Under the pieces are notes generated by a model. The model did no database searches. It saw only the letters and a program-made list of their open reading frames with translations, and was not told where the DNA came from. Shown here in pieces: positions 19,720 through 42,709 of a stretch of 52,116 nt of DNA (position 1 is the stretch's first letter; every line of letters begins with the position of its first letter). Source of the DNA: Candidatus Methanofastidiosum methylothiophilum (GTDB lineage Archaea > Methanobacteriota_B > Thermococci > Methanofastidiosales > Methanofastidiosaceae); contig LNGD01000001.1 in the NCBI GenBank assembly GCA_001587675.1, positions 1 through 52,116 on the forward strand. Reading direction: 5' to 3'. The translations under genes and the position numbers were made by a program.

Positions 19720-20736
19720 ATGAAAAAAGTAAAACTAGGCGTTGTAGGATTTGGCGTCGTTGGAAAAGGAGTATGCAAGGTAATAAGAGATAGAGCAGAA
19801 CAATACAAAAACAAATATGGCGTTGACTTTAGAATAGTATGCGTTGCAGATATGCTAAATTCTATTTATGATGAAAACGGAATTGACTTAGTTAAGTTAA
19901 TGGATCATAATCAAGAAAGATCCCTCATGATTAATTATCCTGATTCTTCCAAAGATAAAAAATGGAATGGAGAAATGGCCATAGAGAATATAGATGCAGA
20001 CATAATCATAGAAGTTACCCCAACAAACATCAAAGATGCTCAACCCGGAATGAATCATATTATGAAAGCTTTTGAAAAAGAAATGCATGTTGTAACCTCA
20101 AATAAAGGTCCCTTAGCACTTCATTATGACAAGGTAATAAAGGCAAAGGAAAAAAGCGGTAAAGATTTTAGATATGAAGCAACTGTTGGGGGGACAATGC
20201 CTGTAATTAATCTTGCACAAGAAGCATTAAAAGGAAATGAGATTATCTCTGTAAAAGGTATTTTAAACGGTACAACAAATTATATACTTTCGAACATGGC
20301 GTTTGAAGGAAAAAAATTTGGCGAAGCACTAAAGGAAGCACAGGAGAAAGGCTATGCGGAAGCAAATCCTGCCCAAGACATTGAAGGCTGGGATGCAGCA
20401 TGCAAAGCTACCATTCTTTCAAATACATTAATGAATAAATCAATGACCTTGAAAGATGTAAAAGTTCAAGGAATATCTGGAGTAATGATGGAAGATGTCA
20501 TAGAAGCAAAAAATAATGGGAATATAATTAAATTAATCGTAGAGGTTACTGAAAAAGGTGCAAAGGTAGAACCAACAGCGGTTCCACTCAACTCCCCTCT
20601 TGCAGTCACCGGTACTTTAAATGTCGCTGTTTTTGATACAGATTTATCCAAAGATATAACTGTAATGGGCAGGGGTGCAGGCCAGATAGAAACAGCGGCT
20701 GCAATCATGAGCGATGTATTTGCAATAGTTAGATAA
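19720..20736 (+). CDS. hom: Homoserine dehydrogenase
   Basis: N-terminal GVVGFGVVGKG Rossmann motif, plus GILNGTTNYIL and EANPAQDIEGWDAACKATIL signature blocks. Confidence 0.9.
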   Translation: MKKVKLGVVGFGVVGKGVCKVIRDRAEQYKNKYGVDFRIVCVADMLNSIYDENGIDLVKLMDHNQERSLMINYPDSSKDKKWNGEMAIENIDADIIIEVTPTNIKDAQPGMNHIMKAFEKEMHVVTSNKGPLALHYDKVIKAKEKSGKDFRYEATVGGTMPVINLAQEALKGNEIISVKGILNGTTNYILSNMAFEGKKFGEALKEAQEKGYAEANPAQDIEGWDAACKATILSNTLMNKSMTLKDVKVQGISGVMMEDVIEAKNNGNIIKLIVEVTEKGAKVEPTAVPLNSPLAVTGTLNVAVFDTDLSKDITVMGRGAGQIETAAAIMSDVFAIVR

Positions 20737-20745
20737 GGTGCTCCA

Positions 20746-21498
20746 ATGAAGCTTCTAAGGTACAGCTACAACGAAAAAATTGAAAATGGGATACTTGAAA
20801 AAGATATAATAAAAAGAATTAAAGGAGATTATTTTTCTAGTTTTCAAATAACTGAAGATGAAGTTAATTTAAGCAAAGTAAAGTTGCTTTCACCAACAAC
20901 GCCTTCCAAAATTGTAGCTGTAGGTCTAAATTATGTAGATCATGCAAAGGAACTAAAAATGGAAATACCAAAAAATCCAATCATATTTATAAAGCCCGCT
21001 AGTACAGTTATTGGGCCAGAAGAACCTATAATCTACCCCGAATCTTCAACTCAAGTTGATTATGAAGTTGAACTTGGAGTAGTTATAGGAAAAAGAGCAA
21101 AGAATGTGGAAAAGGATGAAGCAGAGGAATATATATTAGGCTACACAGTATTCAATGACGTTACAGCAAGAGATCTTCAAAGAAAAGATACTCAATGGAC
21201 AAGGGCCAAATCATTTGATACATTTGCTCCGATTGGACCTTTAATCGAAACAAATCTTGATCCTTTAGACCTTCAAATATCCTTAAAATTAAACGGGGAG
21301 TTAAGACAGAATTCATCTACAAAAAACATGATATTTAATTGTTATGAGCTATTAGAATTTATATCTGAAATAATGCCTCTCGAACCTGGGGATGTCATAG
21401 CAACAGGCACCCCTCCCGGGGTAGGGCCAATGAAAAGAGGGGACGTAGTAGAAGCAAAAATAGAAGGAATTGGAACATTAAGAAATTATGTTATTTAA
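20746..21498 (+). CDS. Fumarylacetoacetate hydrolase (FAH) family protein
   Basis: VGLNYVDHAKE...DYEVELGVVIG...FNDVTARDLQ...KSFDTF.PIGP...GDVIATGTPPGVG is the canonical FAH-fold motif series. Confidence 0.85.
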   Translation: MKLLRYSYNEKIENGILEKDIIKRIKGDYFSSFQITEDEVNLSKVKLLSPTTPSKIVAVGLNYVDHAKELKMEIPKNPIIFIKPASTVIGPEEPIIYPESSTQVDYEVELGVVIGKRAKNVEKDEAEEYILGYTVFNDVTARDLQRKDTQWTRAKSFDTFAPIGPLIETNLDPLDLQISLKLNGELRQNSSTKNMIFNCYELLEFISEIMPLEPGDVIATGTPPGVGPMKRGDVVEAKIEGIGTLRNYVI

Positions 21499-21518
21499 TT
21501 TAGAATAATGGTGATATT

Positions 21519-22601
21519 ATGGAAAAAATAAATGTAGGTGTCATTGGAGCCACAGGAATGGTCGGTCAAAATTATATTAGACTATTAGACAATCACCCAT
21601 GGTTTAACGTTACATATGTTGCCGCATCACCTAAGAGTGCAGGTAAATCGTATGAAGAAGCAGTAATGGGCAAATGGCAAATGATTACAGATCCGCCAGA
21701 AAAAGTGAAAAAGCTAATAGTTGGAGATGCTAATAACGTAAGTAATGCAATAGGAAAATGTAATTTAGTTTTCTCTGCTCTTGAAATGGAAAAAGAAAAA
21801 ATAAAAGAGCTCGAAGTTGAATACGCTAAAGCAGGCATACCTGTGTTTTCTAATGCATCTGCAAATAGAAATGTTGATACAATCCCAATGTTAATTCCTG
21901 AAATAAACAGTAATCATATTGAGGTAATATCTCATCAGAAGAAAGTATATGGATTTGATAAAGGTTTCATAGTTGTAAAGCCAAATTGTTCTTTACAAAG
22001 TTATATGACACCAGTATATGCATTAATTAAAGCCGGATACGAAGTCAAAAGAATGATAATCACAACAATGCAAGCAGTATCGGGAGCTGGATACCCTGGT
22101 GTACCATCCCTTGATATGATTGATAATATTGTACCTTTCATTTCGGGAGAAGAAGAAAAATCTGAAGTGGAGCCTCAAAAAATTATGGGTAAAATAGTTA
22201 ATGGTAAAATAGTAAACGATACAAGTATTAAGATATCTGCCCATTGTAACAGGGTTCCGGTAATTGATGGACATACAGCATGTGTAAGTTTAGAATTTGG
22301 ACCAAAAAAACCTTCTTTAGACGAAATTAAAAAAATTTGGAGGGAATTCAAATCCGAACCACAAGAATTAAACTTACCTTTTGCACCAAAGCATCCAATC
22401 ATTTATAGAGAAGAAAACAATAGGCCACAGCCCAAAAAAGATAGAGATAGTGACAAAGCTATGGCAGCTACAATAGGTAGATTAAGAGAATGCAAAGTAT
22501 TTGATATCCGTTTTGTTTGCCTTTCTCATAATACAGTTAGAGGTGCAGCCGGCGGAGGAATATTAAATGCTGAGCTTCTCAAAGCCAAAGGATACCTTTG
22601 A
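21519..22601 (+). CDS. asd: Aspartate-semialdehyde dehydrogenase (archaeal type)
   Basis: GVIGATGMVGQ Rossmann motif, an active-site KPNCS block, and ...GHTACVS.... GGTGAT-ATT-ATG start. Confidence 0.9.
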   Translation: MEKINVGVIGATGMVGQNYIRLLDNHPWFNVTYVAASPKSAGKSYEEAVMGKWQMITDPPEKVKKLIVGDANNVSNAIGKCNLVFSALEMEKEKIKELEVEYAKAGIPVFSNASANRNVDTIPMLIPEINSNHIEVISHQKKVYGFDKGFIVVKPNCSLQSYMTPVYALIKAGYEVKRMIITTMQAVSGAGYPGVPSLDMIDNIVPFISGEEEKSEVEPQKIMGKIVNGKIVNDTSIKISAHCNRVPVIDGHTACVSLEFGPKKPSLDEIKKIWREFKSEPQELNLPFAPKHPIIYREENNRPQPKKDRDSDKAMAATIGRLRECKVFDIRFVCLSHNTVRGAAGGGILNAELLKAKGYL

Positions 22602-31326: not shown

Positions 31327-32883
31327 TTATTTTTTCTTTATATAAGTGTTGTATACGTAGTATCCCCCAACGAGCAATATTACAATTAAACCGATAATTA
31401 CTCCAAGTCTTAAATTATTTATTGACTTTTGGACTGGAACATCTATGTTTTTTTCAAAGAGGTATACATTTAAATCTTGTTTTTCCTTGTTTCCAACTGC
31501 CCTAATTCTGAGATTTAATTGATAAGTTTTGTCTTCGGCATCCGATTTGATATCGGTATTTAATATTACTTCAGCTTTTTGTCCGGGTTCTAAAACTCCA
31601 ATATAATCATTTTTTGAAGTGAAATCAAAAGGCTGCTCCGATCTTTCAATCGCTTCAACAATTATTGATTCTGCTTTGTCCTCTCCTTTGTTTTCTATTG
31701 TTAAATATATCTTTGCATTTCCTCCAGCTCTAGGTGTTTCAGGGACTAGATGATACTCAGTAATCTCCAATTCAGGCTTCCCTTTGATATCTATGTTTAA
31801 TTCGAACTCTTCCTTAAGCAGATTATTTGATGAGTCTCTGTATTCAACTACCATGGGCACTTTGTAGTTCATTTTTTTTGCATTCTTGTTAACATTAATA
31901 AGAAATTCTGCTTCCTTGCTTTGACCTGCTGAAAGTGTACCAATATTATATGAACTCTCATATGATCTAGACAATGAAAATGGCTCTTCCACGTTTAGAG
32001 AAGCTTTAACGTACTTTGCACTCTCTGTTCCTTGATTTGCTAAATTAACTTTTAATTTAACATTCTCATTTCCTGGCCTTATATTATCTGGTAGTGATGA
32101 GAAATTAATTACCATTATTTCTGATCGTCCAGCTACATGAAGCCCAAATTGGATTGTATAAGGTCTAGGGTAAGGTGTTGTTCCGTCATAGAAGTATAAT
32201 ACAAGCGTCATAGGATAGTTACCTGAGGTTATTTTTTCATTTGCCCTTAATTTAAATGACAGAATTTTTTCTTCATTAGCTTCAATATTTCCTATATATA
32301 CTGAATCAGAGGTATTTTCAGGTATAAATGGAATTAATCCCATAGTCGAAGTCATCTGGGAGGAAACTGACGTAGCCTGAGATCCAGTAGGAATTGCTCC
32401 AACGGGAGGAACTGTAAGTGAAGCTTTCACAGTATATGCCCTCATTGATCCTTCATTAGACAAAAGAATTTCAAGATCGAAAGCCTCGCCTGGCTCAACA
32501 TTCAAGGGATTAGTTTTTATTTCTTTAATTACAAACTCATACTGGCTTCTGCCAACTTTGTAACCAACAGGCCCTTTAATTATTACATTAACCCCCACTT
32601 TTGAAACATCAATTAGGTTAATCGTAATATCGTCTACTTTCAATGAATCTCCTTCAGAAATATAAACACCCAATGGCCCAATTGGGGCGGTTCCGTCTAG
32701 CACCATAAACGATGCAATTGTATCCTTGTAGTCAGTAAGCGCCACTGCATAAGGTCCAACAAAAATAAATTCATTATCGTAAAGATTTCCTGAATATATC
32801 ACCGTATCCGTGCTTCCATATGCAAATGGCATAACAACGCTCAAAACAAAAATTCCTATTAAAAATATACTAATTTTCTTCAT
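31327..32883 (-). CDS. COG1361-type surface protein with tandem CARDB-like domains and C-terminal TM anchor
   Basis: Signal peptide and repeated modules (NPLNVEPGEAFDLEILLSNEGSMRAYTVKASL; DNIRPGNENVKLKVNLANQGTESAKYVKASL; ETPRAGGNAKIYLTIENKGEDKAESIIV). C-terminal TM plus KKK. GGAGGAT SD. Confidence 0.6.
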   Translation of the reverse strand: MKKISIFLIGIFVLSVVMPFAYGSTDTVIYSGNLYDNEFIFVGPYAVALTDYKDTIASFMVLDGTAPIGPLGVYISEGDSLKVDDITINLIDVSKVGVNVIIKGPVGYKVGRSQYEFVIKEIKTNPLNVEPGEAFDLEILLSNEGSMRAYTVKASLTVPPVGAIPTGSQATSVSSQMTSTMGLIPFIPENTSDSVYIGNIEANEEKILSFKLRANEKITSGNYPMTLVLYFYDGTTPYPRPYTIQFGLHVAGRSEIMVINFSSLPDNIRPGNENVKLKVNLANQGTESAKYVKASLNVEEPFSLSRSYESSYNIGTLSAGQSKEAEFLINVNKNAKKMNYKVPMVVEYRDSSNNLLKEEFELNIDIKGKPELEITEYHLVPETPRAGGNAKIYLTIENKGEDKAESIIVEAIERSEQPFDFTSKNDYIGVLEPGQKAEVILNTDIKSDAEDKTYQLNLRIRAVGNKEKQDLNVYLFEKNIDVPVQKSINNLRLGVIIGLIVILLVGGYYVYNTYIKKK

Positions 32884-33949
32884 TATAATCCTCCATTTTT
32901 TTCTTAATTAGATTTTTTGTATCTTGAAATACTTTTTCTTGAATAACTAAAAATGATGGGAGGAATATTAATGTTACTCCCATGCAACTAAATACGCCAA
33001 TGAAAAGCATTTTTCCCATAGTATCTAACATAGATAGCGAGCCTGCCAACATAGCAATAAATCCAAATCCTGCTACAATAGATGAAACTACTATTGGTTC
33101 AATAACACCTTCTAAAGTTCTAACAATTTTTTCTACAATAATTGGGGATCTTTCCATATTGAACCTATTTATAGTTTGGATTGCAAAATCAATCCCTATC
33201 CCTGCCATCATTGAGACTACTCCAACTAGCTCAGAACTTAATGAAATACCGATAAATCCAGAGATACCCATCATCCATACTATACCTACCCCAACACATA
33301 TCAGTGGGATTATACCATATCTTATCGATCTAAATGTTAGGATAACACATAACAAGACCCCAATCATCCCAAAAGTAGAGATTTTTGACATTTCTGGCAA
33401 AATAATATCTGTTAATTCTTTGCCCATAGCTATATTCCCCCCGGGCTGAACTGTCAATATTGTTCTTGACATTGTCTCCTTAACATCGTCATAGACTACC
33501 AAGGGGTCTACCCCCTTCATAACATTTAGACGGATTAACATATATCCTAAGCTATCTGAAATTTCTAATTTATTCATTAGCTGTTCTTTTGGCAGATATA
33601 TTTCATCTAATTCAAGATTAAATGATGAGCTTTCTATACCATAAATGCTTTTAAGTTCTTGATTTAGGAGATAAGCTTCCTTTAGAACATCAGGGGAAAA
33701 TACATTATCAGAATTTATAACTATAATAATTGAGTTATATCTTTCAAACTTATCTTCCATTTTCATAAATACTTTAATTTCTTCAATAGTTTTAGGTAAC
33801 TGATCTGAATCTTCTTCTTGTTTAACTTCTATTAGAGACATTCCTATTCCTAGTATTATTGTGATTATTATTGAAACAACTAAAAGTCTCTTAGGATGTT
33901 TACCATGTGCCTCTGCAAATTTTTTGATTACTTTGTCTATATTTCTCAA
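32870..33949 (-). CDS. MMPL/RND-superfamily exporter, half-size protein (second half)
   Basis: One N-terminal TM segment, a soluble loop, then a 5-TM bundle with FRSIRYGIIPLICVGVGIVWMMG...GIGIDFAIQTINRF. TTG start 1 nt after the preceding stop, with a GGAGTGGT SD-like element. Confidence 0.75.
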   Translation of the reverse strand: MRNIDKVIKKFAEAHGKHPKRLLVVSIIITIILGIGMSLIEVKQEEDSDQLPKTIEEIKVFMKMEDKFERYNSIIIVINSDNVFSPDVLKEAYLLNQELKSIYGIESSSFNLELDEIYLPKEQLMNKLEISDSLGYMLIRLNVMKGVDPLVVYDDVKETMSRTILTVQPGGNIAMGKELTDIILPEMSKISTFGMIGVLLCVILTFRSIRYGIIPLICVGVGIVWMMGISGFIGISLSSELVGVVSMMAGIGIDFAIQTINRFNMERSPIIVEKIVRTLEGVIEPIVVSSIVAGFGFIAMLAGSLSMLDTMGKMLFIGVFSCMGVTLIFLPSFLVIQEKVFQDTKNLIKKKMEDYNEEN

Positions 33950-33950
33950 A

Positions 33951-35033
33951 TTACCACTCCCTCAGAGCCATTATTGAAGGTAAAAAGACCAGTGCCCCGA
34001 TCAAACAAGTTACTATCCCTAACGATAAAGCTGTTCCAAGATGTACCATCATTGGCATTGATGAAAGAGCTAAGGCCAAAAATCCAGCAATTGTAGTTGA
34101 GCTAGAGCCTATCGTTCCCACACCGACACCTGCAACCATAGCTACAATTCTTTCTTCATTTGTTTTTCCTTTTTTTGCTTCTTCGTTATATCGGGCCATC
34201 ATGAATATTCCATATTCAGCACCCAATCCGATAACTATAGCACCAACACTAGCAGTAACAAGACTAATTGGTATCCCAACATATGATAAAATTCCGGCAG
34301 TCCAAAAGACCCCACATAATAAAGGAATGATTACAAAAAATGATTTCCATCTTAGTATAAGAGTTAATAAAATGAAAACTATTATTGCAGATATGGCCAT
34401 AGTCTTTAACGAATCTTCTCTTAGTACTCTAATAATTGTTTTATTCAAAACAGGAGAGCCTGTAATGGTGTAATTTAATCCATAAAGCTGCGTTTTTTCA
34501 GTTTCTTCTTCAACTATATCAATTGCAGCTTGTATCTCTTCTTCCCCTCTTACTCCGCTCATTCTTATTATAACAAGAGCGGAGGTGTAGTCTTTTGATA
34601 TAAGACCTGGCATAGTTTTTGCAACTTCTCTCAATGTGGCCTCATCTGAAGGTATACTCTTGAAAATAGAATAATAAATACTGCCTGGGCCAACTACATC
34701 TAGAATTTCTGGTCTGGCTTTTAATCTCTTTTCAAGTTCGTATATGCTGTCTAAACTTTGTTTATTCCGAATATCCTTTACAATATCTAAATCAGTTTCC
34801 AATAATATTATTATTCCCTCTTCCTGACCAAATTCACTATCTATTAAATTTTGTGTCTTTACTACATCAAAGTTTTGAGGAAGTTCTTTCATAAAGTTGG
34901 ATTCAAATCGTAGATTTAATGCCCCAAAAGATAAAAATAATGTTAGAAGTAACATTAATGTAACTATAATTTTACTATACCTATATTCAAAAAGTGCAAG
35001 TTTTCCGAATAATGTATCTCTGAGTTCTATCAT
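33951..35033 (-). CDS. MMPL/RND-superfamily exporter, half-size protein (first half)
   Basis: Same architecture as its partner: LRWKSFFVIIPLLCGVFWTAGILSYVG...GLGAEYGIFMMARYNEE. GAGGTGGA SD, and the ATG overlaps the padR stop (ATGA). Confidence 0.75.
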   Translation of the reverse strand: MIELRDTLFGKLALFEYRYSKIIVTLMLLLTLFLSFGALNLRFESNFMKELPQNFDVVKTQNLIDSEFGQEEGIIILLETDLDIVKDIRNKQSLDSIYELEKRLKARPEILDVVGPGSIYYSIFKSIPSDEATLREVAKTMPGLISKDYTSALVIIRMSGVRGEEEIQAAIDIVEEETEKTQLYGLNYTITGSPVLNKTIIRVLREDSLKTMAISAIIVFILLTLILRWKSFFVIIPLLCGVFWTAGILSYVGIPISLVTASVGAIVIGLGAEYGIFMMARYNEEAKKGKTNEERIVAMVAGVGVGTIGSSSTTIAGFLALALSSMPMMVHLGTALSLGIVTCLIGALVFLPSIMALREW

Positions 35034-35377
35034 TGTTCCACCTCAAAGACTTCCTTTAGAAAATCTTCATAATAAAGTAAATCTCTTTTTAGATAATTCA
35101 TTTTTTCTTTAAGCTTTACCATTCCTTTCGGTGTGATTTTATAATATTTCTTCCCTCGGGTTCCCTTATTCGTTTCCTCAATTAGGCCTTCTGTGGCCAT
35201 GAACAATATTTTTGGATAGATCAGTGCAGGAGAAAGTTTCCAGTTACCACTAGATCTCCTCTCTATCTCTTTTATTATATCATAGCCACAAAGTTCCTTT
35301 TTGCTGAATAACCAAAGGCCAAAAGTATCAAATATATGGAAGTAATGAATACTGTTATGAATTTGTTTAAACGTCAT
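35030..35377 (-). CDS. padR: PadR-family transcriptional regulator
   Basis: CGYDIIKEIERRSSGNWKLSPALIYPKILFMATEGLIEE...KKYYKITPKG is the PadR winged-helix pattern. It is the first gene of the exporter/surface operon. Confidence 0.7.
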   Translation of the reverse strand: MTFKQIHNSIHYFHIFDTFGLWLFSKKELCGYDIIKEIERRSSGNWKLSPALIYPKILFMATEGLIEETNKGTRGKKYYKITPKGMVKLKEKMNYLKRDLLYYEDFLKEVFEVEQ

Positions 35378-35445: not shown

Positions 35446-36741
35446 TTAACCTACTATTTTCTCCCATTTTTTAAGTTTAAGCACTTTTGATAGGGTTGAC
35501 CCTCTTTTTATTTCTTCCCTGATTCTATTTTCTTTTTCCTTGACATCAAGGCTTCTATTGATTATCTCTTGAGCTTCTTCTTGTGGAATTACAACAACTC
35601 CACTATCGTCACCTATTATATAATCACCAGTATTGACTTTTAGCCCTCCACAGATGATTTCACATCCTATTTCTCCAAAACCTTTTGGGTCTCCTGCATC
35701 TGGAACTTCATACCTAGAGAATACTGGAAAACGTATTTCTTTAAGATCGTCTATATCTCTAACGGCACCATCTATAACAATGCCACCAAGACCTCTCATA
35801 ACTGCACTCCATGTTGCAAGTTCCCCCCACACTGCAATGTTTCCACCGTTTGTATCTACTACTAATATATCCCCTTTGTTGGCTAGATCTATTGCTTCTA
35901 CAACTTTAGCCCAATCTCCATTCATGCTTTTCACGGTAAAGGCTTTACCTGCCATCTTAAGGCCAGGAATAACTGAGTGTATGCCCTTCATAGCCCCTCC
36001 TCTGTGCATAGCATCAGAAACATTAGAAGATGAGACTTTTTTCAAGGCATCAATCAATTCATCTTTTTTATATTTTCGGAATTCTAAACTTTCAATTGGT
36101 TTTGAAAGGTCAATACTTTGTCTAATTCTTTTAGTGGCTTCTAAGAGATTGGCAGCTTTAGTGATTGCGCCGCCGACAATTACTATATCTGCACCAGCGG
36201 ATACTACTTCAGGGGCATTTTCAGAATTTAATCCACCTGCAGTAGCTATAGTAATATTTACGGCTTCTTTTACGTCTTTAATATCTTGTAATGGATTTTC
36301 ACCTTTCATTTGTTGGTCAATACCTACATGAATACATACGTACTTTGCACCCATTTTTTGGACTTCCGCAGCTCTTCCAACTTTGTCTTTTACATTTATT
36401 AGATCAACCATAATTTCAGAATTGTATTTTTTTGCCGCCTTAATAGCTTCCTTTATGGTGCTGTCATCTGAAGCTCCTAAAATTGAAATAATATCTGCAC
36501 CAGCCTTTGAAGCCATTTCAGTTTCAAAATCGCCGGTATCCATTGTTTTCATATCTGCAACTATTTTTTTTCCAGGAAAAGTCTTTTTTAGTTCTCTAAT
36601 AGCTTCCATGCCCTCACTCTTGATGAGAGGGGTTCCAGCTTCAATCCAATCTATTCCACCCTCAACAGATTCTTTTGCAATTGATATAGCTCGATCAAGA
36701 TTTAACATGTCTAATGCAAGTTGAAGAATTATTTTGTTAAT
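35446..36741 (-). CDS. Bifunctional 3-hexulose-6-phosphate synthase (OMPDC-fold) / RraA-like class II aldolase-family fusion
   Basis: The N-terminal half has ...LQLALD..., GGIDWIEAGTPLIK, VADMKTMDTG and IVIVGGAITKA (HPS/KGPDC pattern). The C-terminal half has GDILVVDTNGGNIAVWGELATWSAVMRGLGGIVIDGAVRD...GDDSGVVVIP (RraA family). I extended the start to ATT 36741 (see finding); the first ATG is 36708. Confidence 0.8.
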   Translation of the reverse strand: MNKIILQLALDMLNLDRAISIAKESVEGGIDWIEAGTPLIKSEGMEAIRELKKTFPGKKIVADMKTMDTGDFETEMASKAGADIISILGASDDSTIKEAIKAAKKYNSEIMVDLINVKDKVGRAAEVQKMGAKYVCIHVGIDQQMKGENPLQDIKDVKEAVNITIATAGGLNSENAPEVVSAGADIVIVGGAITKAANLLEATKRIRQSIDLSKPIESLEFRKYKKDELIDALKKVSSSNVSDAMHRGGAMKGIHSVIPGLKMAGKAFTVKSMNGDWAKVVEAIDLANKGDILVVDTNGGNIAVWGELATWSAVMRGLGGIVIDGAVRDIDDLKEIRFPVFSRYEVPDAGDPKGFGEIGCEIICGGLKVNTGDYIIGDDSGVVVIPQEEAQEIINRSLDVKEKENRIREEIKRGSTLSKVLKLKKWEKIVG

Positions 36742-37503
36742 TCAATCACCCTTAATTAGTTTATTTTCACTATAAAGAAGATTTTCTCTCATAATTCTAA
36801 TCGACTCTCTTAAATTCTCCTTATTATCAAATACTAATTCTTTTTTTTTATTGCTGCTCTTAAAGATTTTTATTTCTTCAATTAATCTAGGAAGAACTCT
36901 TTTAACATTGTCCACAATTGTAATGTCAGAATATAACGAAGTTCTCGAAATTGGATTTAAATCAATAGAAATTACCTTTTTACCCATATTTTTTAGTGCA
37001 ATTGTCCTATCGCCATCTTCTAAAGGTACAAGTACTACATCTGCTGTAAATATTCCTTCTCGTGAAACTTTTCCTCTCATAGAATTTAGTCCTGGGATAT
37101 ATTCGCTCGCATTTTCTCCAACACCCAAAACATTCTTGGCGCCTTTACTTTGCAATTTTTCTTTTATCTTGAGTTCTCTTTCTAATGTTCTATAAAATAA
37201 ATTGATTTCAATTTTTAAAGGTACTAATTCTGATAATTCAACTATCTCATCTGGAACAAGACATGCTACATTTCCATTAACGGATACAACGGGATTCTTT
37301 GCATGACATAATAATATTGCAGCCGCCTTAATGGCTCTTTGAGCAGTTTCAGTTGTCTTTTCACCTAAAAAATAATCAAAAGCCTCTCCTCTGCCATGTG
37401 CAGCCATACCAACTTCGGCTATTATTCCCTCTTTTAGGCAGGTCTTTACTTGCTCTCTCATTATTAGAGATTCATAACGAGGGTGAGTTTTTGGTATATC
37501 CAT
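36742..37503 (-). CDS. Phosphopantothenate synthetase (4-phosphopantoate--beta-alanine ligase, COG1701)
   Basis: HPRYESLIMRE...GMAAHGRGEAFDYFLGEKT...NPVVSVNGNVACL is the archaeal PPS signature. GGTGTT-TAA-ATG start. Confidence 0.85.
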   Translation of the reverse strand: MDIPKTHPRYESLIMREQVKTCLKEGIIAEVGMAAHGRGEAFDYFLGEKTTETAQRAIKAAAILLCHAKNPVVSVNGNVACLVPDEIVELSELVPLKIEINLFYRTLERELKIKEKLQSKGAKNVLGVGENASEYIPGLNSMRGKVSREGIFTADVVLVPLEDGDRTIALKNMGKKVISIDLNPISRTSLYSDITIVDNVKRVLPRLIEEIKIFKSSNKKKELVFDNKENLRESIRIMRENLLYSENKLIKGD

Positions 37504-37511
37504 TTAAACAC

Positions 37512-38402
37512 CTATAATAAAGAATTTGCTATAGATGAGATAATTACTTCTCCTTTAATATCCTTTAATGTATTTAAAACCTTCACTTTATCCTTATCAT
37601 TAACAAAGGTGAATACTCCATCACCAATCATAATTCCTGAAGCGTTGTAGGTATTTACTTCACTTATAATATCGGTTATATCTAGAACTTGTTTGGACAT
37701 AATTTCTGTTTTGTAAGTGAATTCTCTCGAACATTCCATTAATTTTTCAACAGTTTGTTCTTCAATTAAATTATTTAATAACTTACTTCCATATTCTTCA
37801 ATAATCTTCAATTTTTCAGGATTATTAAGTATATTCTCTGTTTTCTTACTACCTAGACTTAAAGCCAAAACCTCTAATTTTTCTTTTAATTCAATATTCT
37901 TTAATAAGCCTGATATACCTGGAGTTCTTCTAATCTCCACTCCTCCCTTTACTATTGCTACAACGTCTCCAAGTCCACTTAGACTTATTACTTCAGTTTC
38001 ATGGGCGATTTTGATACATTCTTCTGGAGTAATTGGAATTAGATCTTTAACTGCAAAACAAATACCTAGTGCTGCTGCTGCAGAGGCCCCAAATCCAGCT
38101 TCAATTGGGACGTGGCATTCATGCTCAATTATGATCTCTTTATTTTTAAAATATCTTGGGTATCTACTATTCAAAATTTTAATACAATTCAAAGTAACTG
38201 GAACTTTATTGTTTGAAACTCTTTTGCCATTTAGAATAACATTGGTAGATTCTATACCCTCCTTTATTTTAATTTTTGTTCTCACGCCTTTTGAAAGAGA
38301 AACACCTGCGCCGGTGGATCCAGTTTTCAGAATATTTTTATTAAAAAATGGAACAAAAAACCCAGTTATGTGGGAAGGTACATAAAACTCTGAATTGTAC
38401 AT
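37512..38402 (-). CDS. Pantoate kinase (GHMP-kinase family, COG1829)
   Basis: VPSHITGFF N-terminal block and a GHMP motif EAGFGASAAAALG. It lies directly upstream of PPS, as in other archaea. Confidence 0.8.
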   Translation of the reverse strand: MYNSEFYVPSHITGFFVPFFNKNILKTGSTGAGVSLSKGVRTKIKIKEGIESTNVILNGKRVSNNKVPVTLNCIKILNSRYPRYFKNKEIIIEHECHVPIEAGFGASAAAALGICFAVKDLIPITPEECIKIAHETEVISLSGLGDVVAIVKGGVEIRRTPGISGLLKNIELKEKLEVLALSLGSKKTENILNNPEKLKIIEEYGSKLLNNLIEEQTVEKLMECSREFTYKTEIMSKQVLDITDIISEVNTYNASGIMIGDGVFTFVNDKDKVKVLNTLKDIKGEVIISSIANSLL

Positions 38403-38411
38403 GCAACGCCT

Positions 38412-38945
38412 TTAAATTTTATTTAAGTTATCAATAAACTTTTTGCATCTAATTCTATCAAGCTTATTGACTATTGGCATGAAAACAAGGTCTTCTTTTT
38501 TAACAGGCTTTCCTATTTCACTAAAGAAATTCACTATCCTTTCTTGATCTTTTATATCTAAAATTTTGGGGTTAAATACGCCACCGAGAACGTCTTCTAA
38601 GACTATGCTATCTTTTGGCAGATACTTTTTCAAAATATCAAGATTGTATTTTCCGCCCTTTTTTTTGTCTTCATATTCAATTTCTTCAATGTCATTGCAT
38701 ACTACAAAAATCGCAATTTTTTTATCTTTTAGTTTTTCTTTGAACTTATCTATAAATGAACGTATGCTCTCCAAAGGTTCATCGTCATAATCCGGGGAGC
38801 CTATAATTATTAGAGAGTAGTTGTCAATTGATAATACTTCATTAGGTTTTTTAACTTCAATATCTTTTACTTCTTCGGAAATCCATCTAGCAATTATCTC
38901 TGTAGAACCATATTTTGTATCATAAACTAGAAGTTTATTAATCAT
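38412..38945 (-). CDS. Flavodoxin-like fold protein
   Basis: MINKLLVYDTKYGSTEIIARWISEE followed by IIIGSP is the flavodoxin-type FMN-loop pattern. I set the start to ATG 38945 (GGTGAA-ACA-ATG) rather than the track start 39044. Confidence 0.6.
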   Translation of the reverse strand: MINKLLVYDTKYGSTEIIARWISEEVKDIEVKKPNEVLSIDNYSLIIIGSPDYDDEPLESIRSFIDKFKEKLKDKKIAIFVVCNDIEEIEYEDKKKGGKYNLDILKKYLPKDSIVLEDVLGGVFNPKILDIKDQERIVNFFSEIGKPVKKEDLVFMPIVNKLDRIRCKKFIDNLNKI

Positions 38946-38976
38946 TGTTTCACCTATTGATGTTACATAATAACAA

Positions 38977-38987
38977 TTTTTATAAAG
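38977..38987. promoter_or_regulatory. Near-palindromic TATA element in the 64-bp divergent region between the flavodoxin-PoK-PPS-HPS operon and coaBC
   Basis: TTTTTATAAAG is centred about 27 nt upstream of the coaBC ATG (39010), which fits a leaderless transcript, and about 35-40 nt upstream of the divergent ATG at 38945. Confidence 0.3.
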
Positions 38988-39009
38988 ATTTAGGCTATAT
39001 CCAAAGTCA

Positions 39010-40227
39010 ATGCACAGAAAATCAATTAAAGGAACTAAATCCAATAAGTTGCTCGGAAAAGGAATAGTATTGGGGATTACTGGAAGTATTGCAGCAGTTG
39101 AATCTGTGAAGCTTTCTAGAGAGCTTATGCGGCATGGTGCAGAAGTATATGCAGTAATGTCAGCCGACGCAAAAAAGATAATTCATCCCTATGCACTTGA
39201 ATTTGCTACCGGAAATCCTGTAGTTGACGAAATAACTGGAAAAATTGAACATGTTTACTATGCAGGAGATCATGATAAAAGATGTGATTTAATTTTGATA
39301 GCTCCTGCAACAGCAAATACAATATCAAAAATAGCTTCTGGAATTGATGACACCCCAGTTACAACAGTAGCGTCTACTGGATTTGGAAAAGTTTCTATGT
39401 TGATTGTTCCCGCTATGCATAGTTCAATGTATAAGAATCCTATTATACTTGAAAATATTGAAAAACTGAAAAAGTATGGTGTTCAGTTTCTTACTCCTAA
39501 ATTTGAAGAAAACAAAGCAAAACTGCCGGAAATAGATGATATTGTAAGAGCAGTAATAAAGACTCTTTCTAATAAGGATTTTCAAGGATTAAAAGTACTT
39601 GTAACAGCAGGACCTACAATTGAAAAAATTGATGATGTTCGCTTTATTACAAATAAGAGTACTGGGCTTATGGGTATAAAAATAGCCGAGGAATTCGACA
39701 TTAGAGGTGCAGACGTTACTTTAATTCTAGGCCATACACAGTTAAAATCTCATGTAAAAACTATAAAGGCCGAAACATTTTTAGATATGCACAAAGCAGT
39801 TATGGCTAATAAAGATGTAGACATTGCTATCTTTGCAGCTGCTACTTCAGATTTTCATGTTGAGTCTTCTTGTGAGGGTAAAATATCTTCAGATAAATCC
39901 TTTAATATTAATCTAGTTCCAAACAAGAAAATAATAGAAGAATTTTCTAAAGTATCAAAAGCTTTTATTGTAGGATTTAAAGCAGAATACTCTTTACCAG
40001 AAGAAGAGCTTATTAGAAGAGCATACGAAAGACTTCAAAGTTCTGAAATGGATTTAATAATTGCAAACGATGTTGGAAAAGAAATGAGGGGATTTGAATC
40101 CATAACTAATGAAGTATATGTAATTGATAAAAATCAAAAAATTTACCACTTACCTCTTGATGAAAAGGAGAAACTTTCTGAAAAAATTGTAAATATAATA
40201 AAAAAATATTTTAATGAAAAAAAGTAA
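39010..40227 (+). CDS. coaBC: Bifunctional phosphopantothenoylcysteine decarboxylase / phosphopantothenate-cysteine ligase
   Basis: GITGSIAAVE and PATANTISKIASGIDD belong to the flavoprotein decarboxylase half. VTAGPTIEKIDDVRFITNKSTGLMG belongs to the CoaB half. Confidence 0.9.
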   Translation: MHRKSIKGTKSNKLLGKGIVLGITGSIAAVESVKLSRELMRHGAEVYAVMSADAKKIIHPYALEFATGNPVVDEITGKIEHVYYAGDHDKRCDLILIAPATANTISKIASGIDDTPVTTVASTGFGKVSMLIVPAMHSSMYKNPIILENIEKLKKYGVQFLTPKFEENKAKLPEIDDIVRAVIKTLSNKDFQGLKVLVTAGPTIEKIDDVRFITNKSTGLMGIKIAEEFDIRGADVTLILGHTQLKSHVKTIKAETFLDMHKAVMANKDVDIAIFAAATSDFHVESSCEGKISSDKSFNINLVPNKKIIEEFSKVSKAFIVGFKAEYSLPEEELIRRAYERLQSSEMDLIIANDVGKEMRGFESITNEVYVIDKNQKIYHLPLDEKEKLSEKIVNIIKKYFNEKK

Positions 40228-41221: not shown

Positions 41222-42709
41222 TTATTCGTCAATTGCCTTAATAAGTTTACATTCAAGATGCTCTCTATGGATAGAGTTGTAGCTACAGAAAGGAATAATA
41301 GAGCCATCAGGGAGTGCATAGTGTATAGCGCATCTTTTTACTCTATCTAAATCAAAGTTAAAAGGATCCATAAAGTGCATTGTTCCTATAAAAATTGACT
41401 TTCTATGCAATTTTGCTAAAAATTCTTTTCCACCGCCGTTTAGAATGCCTTTTGTAATCTCTAATAGATTTAGATCTTTTGGCATTTTTTCTTTATCCAT
41501 ATAAGAATTCATATTTTTAATTATTTTTGCTATTTCTATTCCCTTTCTAATCTTGCCATTATTGGCCATATTTTCATTTCTTTCTTTAACATATTCAAAT
41601 AACCCTTCTACATCTACAAACCTGGTGATTGGGATCATTTTATTGTTTTCTAGAAATACATATGTTGCAACTCCACATTGGGGATGAACAGTAAAATGTG
41701 ACATACTATTTCCTTTCAATGACTCAATAAATTGAGATATAGGAACTACAAAAGGAATCGGATAAAAATCTTCTTTTCCAATTTCTCCATTTGTCTGCTG
41801 TTCAATTAATTTTACCAAGTCTGTAATAGTTATTCTATGACTATTAATCTCTTCTTTACTTGCGCGTCCAGAAAAAGATAGAGGCTGGAAATTAATCCCC
41901 CTTATAACATCAAAATTGTCCCTTCCGAAATAGATTATGTCTCCTATCTCATGGTCATTTATACCTTTTGAAACTGTAGGAACTAAAACCACACTAGTTT
42001 CTCCAAGCTCTCTTAGATTCTGTATTGCCTTTTTCTTTTCAGGTAAAGTATCGTATCCTCTGAATTTTTTGTAAGACTCGTAAGTTAATCCATCAAATTG
42101 CAGATAATAAGTATTTATTCCAGCTTTTATTATTTTATCTAAATAATCTCTTTCTTTGGAAAATCTTTTACCGTTTGTTGCTACTTGAATTTGAGAAAAT
42201 CCCATTTCTTTAGCTGAGCGTATTAAGTCAGGTAAATCCTCTCTCATCGTTGGCTCTCCTCCTGAGAACTGTATTGCAAATGGTGGATTTGGTTTTATTG
42301 AAGCCAATTTTTGGAGAAGATTTATTACTTCTTCATAACTGGGCTCATAGAGGTTCTTTGTAGCACCGGCACTGGCAAAGCATATGGGGCAATTCATGTT
42401 GCATCTATTTGTTAAATCAATATTTACAAAAATTGAAGGTGTTTTGTGGTCTTGACATAATCCACAATCGTAAGGACATCCTTTATTAATATCTTTTTTC
42501 ATTTCAAAGTGATTTTCTACTATATTGTCTAGGCTTTCAAGTCTATGGTAATATTCGGGGTCATCGGAAAGAATATCTGAAAAGAAGCCGTGGTCACTAC
42601 ATTCCTTCTCCATTATAATTTTTCCTTGATCTTCCTTGATATGGGCCTTTACTCTTTTTAGACATCTTGGGCATATGGATTCTGTCGTTCTTAAAATATT
42701 AGGAGACAC
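41222..42709 (-). CDS. Radical SAM protein with N-terminal Cys4-type knuckle and auxiliary cluster motif; tetraether-lipid-synthase (Tes/GDGT-MAS)-like
   Basis: CPRC...C-x-x-HG N-terminal motif, CPYDCGLC auxiliary motif, and a TNRCNMNCPICFA radical SAM motif. At about 495 aa, the architecture matches my recollection of the archaeal Tes/GDGT-MAS family (COG1964-type). GTG start with AAGGTG. Confidence 0.55.
   Translation of the reverse strand: MSPNILRTTESICPRCLKRVKAHIKEDQGKIIMEKECSDHGFFSDILSDDPEYYHRLESLDNIVENHFEMKKDINKGCPYDCGLCQDHKTPSIFVNIDLTNRCNMNCPICFASAGATKNLYEPSYEEVINLLQKLASIKPNPPFAIQFSGGEPTMREDLPDLIRSAKEMGFSQIQVATNGKRFSKERDYLDKIIKAGINTYYLQFDGLTYESYKKFRGYDTLPEKKKAIQNLRELGETSVVLVPTVSKGINDHEIGDIIYFGRDNFDVIRGINFQPLSFSGRASKEEINSHRITITDLVKLIEQQTNGEIGKEDFYPIPFVVPISQFIESLKGNSMSHFTVHPQCGVATYVFLENNKMIPITRFVDVEGLFEYVKERNENMANNGKIRKGIEIAKIIKNMNSYMDKEKMPKDLNLLEITKGILNGGGKEFLAKLHRKSIFIGTMHFMDPFNFDLDRVKRCAIHYALPDGSIIPFCSYNSIHREHLECKLIKAIDE

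Follow-up and report, generated by a model that had tools for sequence, protein, structure and literature searches.

An HPS-RraA fusion protein as a candidate substitute for PanB in archaeal coenzyme A gene clusters

How does an archaeon that encodes the later steps of coenzyme A (CoA) biosynthesis obtain its pantoate? The question is raised by a gene cluster at positions 35446 to 40227 of a 52,116-nucleotide stretch of DNA from Candidatus Methanofastidiosum methylothiophilum (contig LNGD01000001.1; the whole stretch is the window below). In archaea without PanB, which makes ketopantoate, and PanE, the ketopantoate reductase (KPR), the source of pantoate has been the piece missing from a CoA pathway that is otherwise solved; homologues of the two, as Genschel is said to have found in 2004, occur in just a subset of archaea. 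The cluster lacks both and contains instead a gene that joins hexulose-6-phosphate synthase (HPS) to an RraA-like domain. We put at roughly 55% the probability that this fusion is a bifunctional enzyme replacing PanB in the Methanofastidiosum CoA cluster, and consider it a strong candidate for a folate-independent route to the vitamin B5 precursor. The evidence, strong and multi-lineage, comes from genome context only.

The region is a CoA (4'-phosphopantetheine) biosynthesis cluster. Its minus-strand operon begins with a Flavodoxin_5-like gene (38412..38945; PF12724, 47.7 bits), followed by a candidate pantoate kinase of the GHMP kinase type (PoK; 37512..38402; GHMP_kinases_N), phosphopantothenate synthetase (4-phosphopantoate--beta-alanine ligase, PPS; 36742..37503; PF02006, 219.7 bits) and the HPS-RraA fusion gene (35446..36741; NF005442, 627.1 bits against a cutoff of 593). 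Bifunctional phosphopantothenoylcysteine synthetase/decarboxylase, CoaBC, lies divergently on the plus strand (39010..40227; TIGR00521, 395 against 219.7; PF04127 and PF02441). Profile scans agreed with the placing of these five genes in the first-pass annotation, whose gaps of 9 nt and 8 nt between the first three genes and 64-bp spacer before coaBC were exact; its statement that the fusion already has a named NCBI model also proved right, NF005442 being matched above cutoff. PPS passes the equivalog cutoffs of NF010324 (332 against 227) and NF041123 (301.4 against 300). The PoK candidate has the two NCBIfam pantoate kinase models as its best matches and falls far below both cutoffs (177.8 against 500; 149.8 against 380), as does the PoK candidate of the Bathyarchaeota lineage BA2. 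These models seem too narrow for the Methanofastidiosum and BA2 lineages. The PoK slot directly 5' of PPS is kept in 58 of 80 PPS-anchored loci.

The 52-kb window was searched by tblastn with six PanB queries, one from E. coli and five archaeal, and gave no match to PanB; two KPR queries gave none to an ApbA/PanE-family reductase; Pfam scans of most window open reading frames (ORFs) of at least 168 amino acids likewise returned neither PanB nor an ApbA/PanE reductase. The absence of both from the window, which had been read from the sequence by eye, is thus borne out by homology searches.

We then asked which genes accompany the fusion in other archaea. From at least 560 fusion genes, with one genome per species, the 80 most similar were compared with 10-kb flanks, whose ORFs were clustered and scanned with Pfam and NCBIfam. 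These loci come mostly from Thermoplasmatota, and also from Methanofastidiosa, Bathyarchaeota, Helarchaeota, Nezhaarchaeales, Nitrososphaerota and unclassified archaea. CoA genes adjoin the fusion in 12 of the 80, all from other genomes, and at least four lineages have the fusion within a CoA operon, so the co-localisation with PoK, PPS and coaBC that the first-pass annotation had proposed to look for across archaea does exist. PPS lies 5' of the fusion in nine loci, including all five from Methanofastidiosa. It is the immediate neighbour in L001-L005, L032 and L075; in L058 a decarboxylase gene intervenes, and in L079 PPS lies on the other strand at a distance of about 5.8 kb. KPR (2-dehydropantoate 2-reductase) lies directly 3' of the fusion in six loci (L014, L016, L026, L032, L058 and L075), starting 4-20 nt from its end or overlapping it. 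These KPRs carry ApbA and ApbA_C domains and score 248-289 bits on TIGR00745 (cutoff 141); identities of neighbours also exceed the curated cutoffs of TIGR03812 and NF001985.

The fullest arrangements are PoK-PPS-MfnA-type pyridoxal phosphate (PLP) decarboxylase-[HPS-RraA]-KPR-PPAT in BA2 (L058) and PoK-PPS-[HPS-RraA]-KPR-decarboxylase in L075, where coaBC is divergent upstream, and in L151. Shorter versions are PoK-PPS-[HPS-RraA]-KPR (L032), [HPS-RraA]-KPR-decarboxylase in Helarchaeota (L026), [HPS-RraA]-KPR (L016 and L014) and CoaBC-[HPS-RraA] (L079). Genes in the fusion-bearing CoA operons abut or overlap. In archaea beta-alanine comes from the MfnA-family decarboxylase, and these operons therefore cover all steps from 2-oxoisovalerate and aspartate to dephospho-CoA but the PanB reaction; in the full operons the fusion is the sole extra gene.

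Three further observations concern these loci. The L075 contig (DATKTP010000209.1) carries an archaeal-type PoK-PPS-[fusion]-KPR-MfnA operon and sits in a bin assigned to the bacterium 'Candidatus Deferrimicrobium'; the contig is probably archaeal and mis-binned. The KPR of metagenome locus L130 is 100% identical to that of L075. In two Thermoplasmatota loci (L063 and L071) an MfnA-type PLP decarboxylase, probably the supplier of beta-alanine, is divergent from the fusion at 11-18 nt, and no PoK or PPS is nearby.

We also examined CoA loci from the side of PPS, to see what adjoins it where the fusion is lacking. In a metagenome scan of 80 PPS-anchored loci, the commonest orders were PoK-PPS-KPR-PanB-decarboxylase-CoaBC-PPAT and PoK-PPS-PanB-(decarboxylase)-CoaBC. 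Within 4 kb of PPS, PanB occurs in 38 loci, the fusion in three (L081, L130 and L151) and never the two at once; of the remainder, ten loci have at least 3 kb of flank but neither gene, and in 29 the flank is too short for a verdict. The proteins called PanB do belong to PF02548. From the other side, tblastn with five archaeal PanB queries found no PanB in the window, and none in the 80 loci anchored on the fusion or in ten additional loci that carry it. At the level of the locus, PanB is thus present in 0 of 12 fusion operons and in 38 of 48 informative non-fusion operons (Fisher's exact test, p = 4.6e-7; p = 0.0037 with the fusion operons collapsed to four lineages), a local counterpart of the anti-correlation that the first-pass annotation had named as a check.

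A PPS tree does not gather the fusion operons in one group: they occupy at least four separate positions, each surrounded by operons of the PanB type; BA2 and L081, for example, stand beside the KPR-PanB carriers L083, L088 and L089. Such scattered positions are the classical signature of in-situ non-orthologous gene displacement. A PanB from L149, whose PPS lies near those of Methanofastidiosa in a neighbour-joining tree, was tried as a Methanofastidiosum-like query; the protein search returned Nitrosopumilaceae only, and the placement is probably a low-GC artefact. The KPRs that accompany the fusion share only 33-41% identity with the KPRs that accompany PanB; within the L075 group (L026, L032, L058, L075 and L151), identity with the L075 KPR is 50-68%. 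These identities suggest that fusion and KPR may move together as a two-gene pantoate module.

The distance between the two sets of KPRs could also be taken to mean that the operon association is a historical accident without functional meaning, brought about by hitch-hiking or by lateral transfer of a gene block. CoA-linked fusions do group on one side of the fusion tree, so part of the signal could stem from a single transferred block. Against this, the association recurs in varied orders (before or after the decarboxylase, with or without PoK and PPS, or with CoaBC only) and in lineages labelled Methanofastidiosa, Bathyarchaeota, Helarchaeota, Nezhaarchaeales and Nitrososphaerota; the genes are tightly packed, and otherwise complete operons miss PanB alone. 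We regard accident as very improbable.

Can the fusion protein perform the missing step? The protein of the window is 100% identical to Ca. Methanofastidiosum entries in NCBI (P0001) and UniRef and 88-94% identical to dozens of other proteins from Methanofastidiosum metagenome-assembled genomes. It matches NF005442 over residues 2-417 (model positions 13-428). The N-terminal HPS domain (about residues 1-212; 36106..36741, minus strand), of the OMP-decarboxylase suprafamily, passes the HPS model (TIGR03128, 232.6 against 200; PF00215, 132 bits) and matches the M. gastri HPS structure 3AJX (E = 3.8e-47; TM 0.89 for superposition of the model). Its metal and catalytic residues E34, D63, K65, D68 and H138 are each conserved in at least 97% of 81 fusions.

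The C-terminal half (about residues 236-431; 35449..36036, minus strand; PF03737, 150 bits) is an RraA-like domain of class II aldolase fold with a conserved C-terminal helix. Its closest structures are 3K4I, which is uncharacterised (E = 4.7e-27; Foldseek TM 0.84-0.88), and the HMG/CHA aldolase 3NOJ (E = 1.3e-21; Foldseek TM 0.80). In the alignment with 3NOJ the fusion's 'GAVRDIDD' meets 'GVRDTQT', so that R328 and D329 of the 'GAVRD' motif (codons 35755..35760, minus strand) fall at residues 123-124, the catalytic Arg123 and metal ligand Asp124 of HMG/CHA aldolase (R-D-x2-E/D motif). At least 97% of the 81 fusions keep R328 and D329, and the same holds for the acidic residue that corresponds to Asp102. 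Many of the 99 alignment columns conserved at that level fall in the RraA half, and across context groups of distant lineages this half is on average more conserved than the HPS half (62% against 58% mean identity), which argues for a constrained catalytic domain and not a relic. An AlphaFold2 (AF2) model built on a 53-sequence alignment reached pLDDT 88.5, with both halves matching HPS and RraA-fold structures; with a 10-sequence alignment the RraA half had given pLDDT 63. The fusion does not match the PanB family PF02548 in a Pfam scan, and among the best 150 matches from 1.84 billion representative proteins no RraA domain was fused to PPS, KPR or PanB. The RraA half appears to form a distinct subfamily with class II 2-oxoacid aldolase chemistry and not to belong among LigK/PcmE orthologues.

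The family name invites a different reading, in which the RraA half catalyses nothing itself and serves to regulate HPS or an enzyme of RNA degradation, and the label 'ribonuclease regulator' is right. E. coli RraA inhibits RNase E, and the domain has weak similarity to RraA proteins (NF006875, 64.6 bits; PDB 3C8O and 1Q5X). Yet its scores lie far under the cutoffs of the RraA RNase E regulator equivalogs (64.6 against 136 for NF006875; 43.4 against 241 for TIGR02998), it is nearer to HMG/CHA aldolase and 3K4I than to RraA, and the catalytic Arg-Asp pair and the acidic residue are invariant. To our knowledge RNase E is not an archaeal enzyme, which also counts against a regulatory domain. We give this reading hardly any credence.

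We propose instead that the fusion would couple two reactions. The HPS domain would split D-arabino-3-hexulose-6-phosphate, made from fructose 6-phosphate by a 6-phospho-3-hexuloisomerase (PHI) encoded elsewhere, into ribulose 5-phosphate (Ru5P) and formaldehyde. The RraA-like domain, as a divalent-metal class II 2-oxoacid aldolase, would enolise 2-oxoisovalerate and add the formaldehyde, and ketopantoate would form without a folate or methanopterin one-carbon (C1) carrier. Reduction to pantoate would fall to the ApbA-type KPR beside the fusion in other lineages and to an enzyme encoded elsewhere in the Methanofastidiosum genome, after which PoK, PPS and CoaBC would carry pantoate to 4'-phosphopantetheine. 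The aldol reaction has chemical precedent: PanB is a Mg-dependent enolising enzyme and, like the HpcH-type aldolase YfaU, can use free formaldehyde as the partner of 3-methyl-2-oxobutanoate.

Other HPS fusions bear on this scheme. Among the same 1.84 billion representative proteins, HPS is fused to PHI and to aldehyde:ferredoxin oxidoreductase (AFOR_N plus AFOR_C; P0135, P0161 and P0165), the latter an architecture not found in the literature searched. The Fae-HPS fusion has an NCBIfam model of its own, NF009833. Apart from PHI, a pathway neighbour, the HPS fusion partners of known activity are formaldehyde consumers. HPS is also repeatedly linked to pantoate genes: an AFOR-HPS gene (L155:1718-4177, minus strand) separates PPS from PanB in one CoA operon, and an HPS C-terminus (L136:10746-11189, minus strand) adjoins PPS convergently.

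Activity has been published for one member of the fusion family. HPS-MenG of M. hungatei (Mhun0647) showed 0.21 U/mg of HPS activity against 6.05 U/mg for Fae-HPS, about 30-fold less than the latter enzyme of the same organism (PMC5241800), and its MenG-like domain was stated to have no known function (Kono et al. 2017, PMC5241800). An organism with Fae-HPS for bulk flux and a weak HPS-MenG beside it indicates that the fusion can be a low-flux, specialised HPS. This eases a caveat raised at the outset, that demand for Ru5P far exceeds demand for CoA. In a full-text literature search we found no paper linking RraA or MenG-like domains to pantoate, and PMC5241800 was the only one to mention the fusion.

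Several findings weigh against the proposed role. For about 65 of the 80 fusion loci, the surroundings include no CoA gene. In 33 loci, all from Thermoplasmatota, the 3' end of the fusion is overlapped by a gene for a DUF362 protein with 2x[4Fe-4S], and this overlap suggests translational coupling. The Methanofastidiosum cluster has no KPR. The RraA half does not reach the equivalog cutoffs for HMG/CHA aldolase (TIGR02798, 105.1 against 304.5; NF006731, 119.4 against 179), and the characterised RraA-family aldolases use pyruvate or oxaloacetate; we know of none that acts on a branched 2-oxoacid. The AF2 model has a pTM of 0.63, so the interdomain geometry is not confidently predicted and formaldehyde channelling between the domains is speculation. 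Finally, in L170 (144-7424) a distant fusion of 50% identity heads a cluster of phosphoribosyl pyrophosphate (PRPP) synthase, ribulose-phosphate 3-epimerase, split transketolase and transaldolase, adjoining the RuBisCO large subunit, a context that fits a general role in the reverse ribulose monophosphate (RuMP) pathway.

That role is the main rival to our proposal. It holds that the fusion is a plain reverse-RuMP HPS supplying Ru5P for nucleotides, that the RraA half is a generic formaldehyde sink (condensing, for example, pyruvate and formaldehyde to 4-hydroxy-2-oxobutanoate) or has some other role, and that the gene keeps company with CoA genes only because formaldehyde from HPS enters the C1 pool on which a canonical PanB elsewhere in the genome draws. 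Besides L170, it can appeal to L163 (550-7896), a combined C1, pantoate and RuMP cluster in which a fusion of 47% identity stands in the order B12-binding/S-methyltransferase/pterin-binding (methionine-synthase modules)-KPR-formate-tetrahydrofolate ligase-[HPS-RraA]-SIS/PHI. L163 is the only locus with an adjacent SIS gene; tblastn found no PHI in the window or in L001-L160. Of eight distant fusion contexts retrieved, seven were short or uninformative. The FolD, GPR1/YaaH-family and MFS genes of Thermoplasmatota may point to C1 or formate handling, and the AFOR-HPS gene of L155 means that HPS can be linked to CoA genes even where PanB is present. CoA linkage, moreover, extends to only about 15% of the sampled fusion loci. 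What this rival leaves unexplained is that PanB, so common in informative operons, is missing from every fusion operon, and that the fusion is paired with KPR, the consumer of PanB's product, in six lineages and in L163. CoA-linked and DUF362-linked fusions, furthermore, differ consistently at just five alignment positions, none of them at the catalytic motifs. The chemistry of the fusion is therefore probably alike everywhere, which argues for one activity needed by every CoA-making cell. On this balance the reverse-RuMP explanation is a real but rather unlikely one, and PanB replacement in the Methanofastidiosum cluster remains our preferred reading.

There is also a wider and more tentative version, to which we would give somewhat less than even odds: the fusion may be the missing archaeal ketopantoate synthase in all its contexts, a self-contained means of C1 transfer independent of folate and methanopterin that fixes its formaldehyde at once, with the DUF362/[4Fe-4S] protein of Thermoplasmatota as a possible ferredoxin-linked partner, and archaeal HPS may routinely be fused or linked to a formaldehyde consumer, be it Fae, AFOR or an RraA-type aldolase. 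The DUF362 protein is exemplified by L007:1551-2555 and also occurs, among others, in L008-L013 and L017-L025. Recurring near Thermoplasmatota fusions are a GPR1/FUN34/YaaH-family transporter, an MFS transporter that by eye resembles an oxalate/formate antiporter, FolD in some loci and a valyl/isoleucyl-type tRNA synthetase.

The reduction of ketopantoate raises a separate question. The first-pass annotation had suggested, together with the fusion as a PanB substitute, that the flavodoxin-like protein takes part in this step. The gene stands first in its operon both in the window and in L005, 9 nt 5' of PoK, and the window has no ApbA-type KPR. But the close relative L002 lacks this gene, with 138 bp and nothing of the kind between its CoaBC and PoK, and we found no copy in other fusion loci or in the 80 PPS-anchored CoA loci. 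The protein scores below cutoff for all NCBIfam flavodoxin models, and Pfam Flavodoxin_5 alone matched. Reductases linked to the fusion are ordinary NAD(P)H-type ApbA/PanE KPRs, and ketol-acid reductoisomerase is known as an alternative KPR (PMC7883664). A part for the flavodoxin-like protein in ketopantoate reduction is accordingly very unlikely; its gene looks like a lineage-specific passenger and not a conserved member of the pathway, and the Methanofastidiosum ketopantoate reductase must be encoded elsewhere in the genome. Comparative genomics thus supports the first half of the original inference, the fusion in place of PanB, and not the second.

Where the fusion begins is also less simple than the annotation implied. 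The PPS stop codon TGA (36742-36744) is followed by 11 in-frame codons (36709..36744 with the stop, minus strand), ATT AAC AAA ATA ATT CTT CAA CTT GCA TTA GAC, which encode INKIILQLALD, the conserved HPS N-terminus with its invariant motif Q7-A9-L10-D11. A start at ATT 36741 gives a protein of 431 amino acids, as in the NCBI model P0001; a start at the first ATG, 36708, gives 420, the form that other pipelines call (P0002). The reported 0-nt gap between PPS and fusion holds for the ATT start but not for the ATG, which lies 33 nt after the PPS stop. Because the 11 codons encode the invariant motif, the true start is most likely the non-canonical ATT directly after the PPS TGA. Relatives read ATG-AAA-GGT-GAT-TAT where this sequence reads ATT-AAG-GGT-GAT-TGA; the ancestral start would therefore have been lost and a Tyr codon turned into the PPS stop. 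Translation must then presumably begin at an ATT or ATA codon or by re-initiation, as otherwise the conserved LQLALD motif would be lost. We rejected as the principal explanation a read-through of the in-frame TGA, or a triple fusion; in relatives the two genes are separate, overlap in different frames and start with ATG.

The 64-bp divergent region (38946..39009) presumably holds the promoters; its sequence contains a TTTATAAAA box about 35 nt 5' of the flavodoxin-like ATG and GGTGA about 6 nt 5' of it. The window has a GC content of 30-35%. Two genes past coaBC lies the tetraether lipid synthase gene tes (41222-42709, minus strand; NF045702, 640 bits). On the 3' side of the fusion (32870-35377, minus strand) come genes for a PadR regulator and for two transmembrane proteins, each about 360 amino acids long, a pair kept in L001, L004 and L005 that, by eye alone, resembles the halves of an MMPL/RND-type exporter. 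Further away, a small plus-strand cluster (19720-22601) comprises homoserine dehydrogenase, an FAA-hydrolase-family protein and aspartate-semialdehyde dehydrogenase; the position of an FAA hydrolase between two aspartate-pathway genes is unusual.

If the proposal is right, archaeal CoA biosynthesis would lose its last unexplained step in many lineages, and an archaeal RraA-like protein would have its first physiological role, correcting a misleading name carried by hundreds of genomes. It would also mean that free formaldehyde from a sugar phosphate, and not a pterin C1 carrier, can be used in biosynthesis, which would be relevant to organisms without the methyl branch of the C1 pathway, such as Methanofastidiosum. 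For biocatalytic synthesis of pantoate and pantothenate, a natural aldolase able to make a quaternary carbon with formaldehyde would be of interest.

Set against known systems, both the fusion family and the PoK/PPS/CoaBC cluster are familiar; what is new is the proposed functional assignment, which would be an enzyme solution for a known reaction from known folds. The window protein has the two-domain architecture of NF005442/PRK07028 (HPS-MenG, Mhun0647) and scores over its full length above the cutoff. In that family the C-terminal half has no assigned function, and the name 'ribonuclease regulator', inherited from E. coli RraA, was still in use in NCBIfam in June 2026. With the HMG/CHA aldolases (LigK/PcmE/GalC; 3NOJ; pyruvate aldolase/oxaloacetate decarboxylase) the fusion shares the RraA fold, the Arg123-Asp124 pair and the acidic Asp102 position, and the two reactions would be alike in joining a metal-stabilised 2-oxoacid enolate to a carbonyl. 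It differs from them in sequence (about 26% identity), in its fusion to HPS and in a context that is biosynthetic and not aromatic-catabolic; its proposed nucleophile is 2-oxoisovalerate and its electrophile formaldehyde, whereas the HMG/CHA aldolase nucleophile is pyruvate.

Fae-Hps (NF009833) and AFOR-HPS (P0135, P0165 and L155) resemble the fusion in joining HPS to a consumer of its formaldehyde, and the three would differ in the fate of that formaldehyde: methylene-tetrahydromethanopterin with Fae, presumably formate with AFOR, and, as we propose, a carbon-carbon bond to a 2-oxoacid with HPS-RraA. The operons ordered PoK-PPS-KPR-PanB-MfnA-CoaBC-PPAT (L088, L089, L104, L110 and L111) have the same PoK, PPS and CoaBC as the window and the same tight packing. 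Unlike them, the Methanofastidiosum cluster has no KPR, PanB, decarboxylase or PPAT, carries the fusion after PPS and has an extra flavodoxin-like gene. PanB itself (KPHMT, PF02548) would share with the fusion its product, its 2-oxoacid substrate and its operon slot beside KPR, PoK and PPS. The two have no sequence or fold relationship, and their C1 sources would differ: 5,10-methylene-tetrahydrofolate for PanB, free formaldehyde of its own making for the fusion, which would be an analogue of PanB and not a member of its family.

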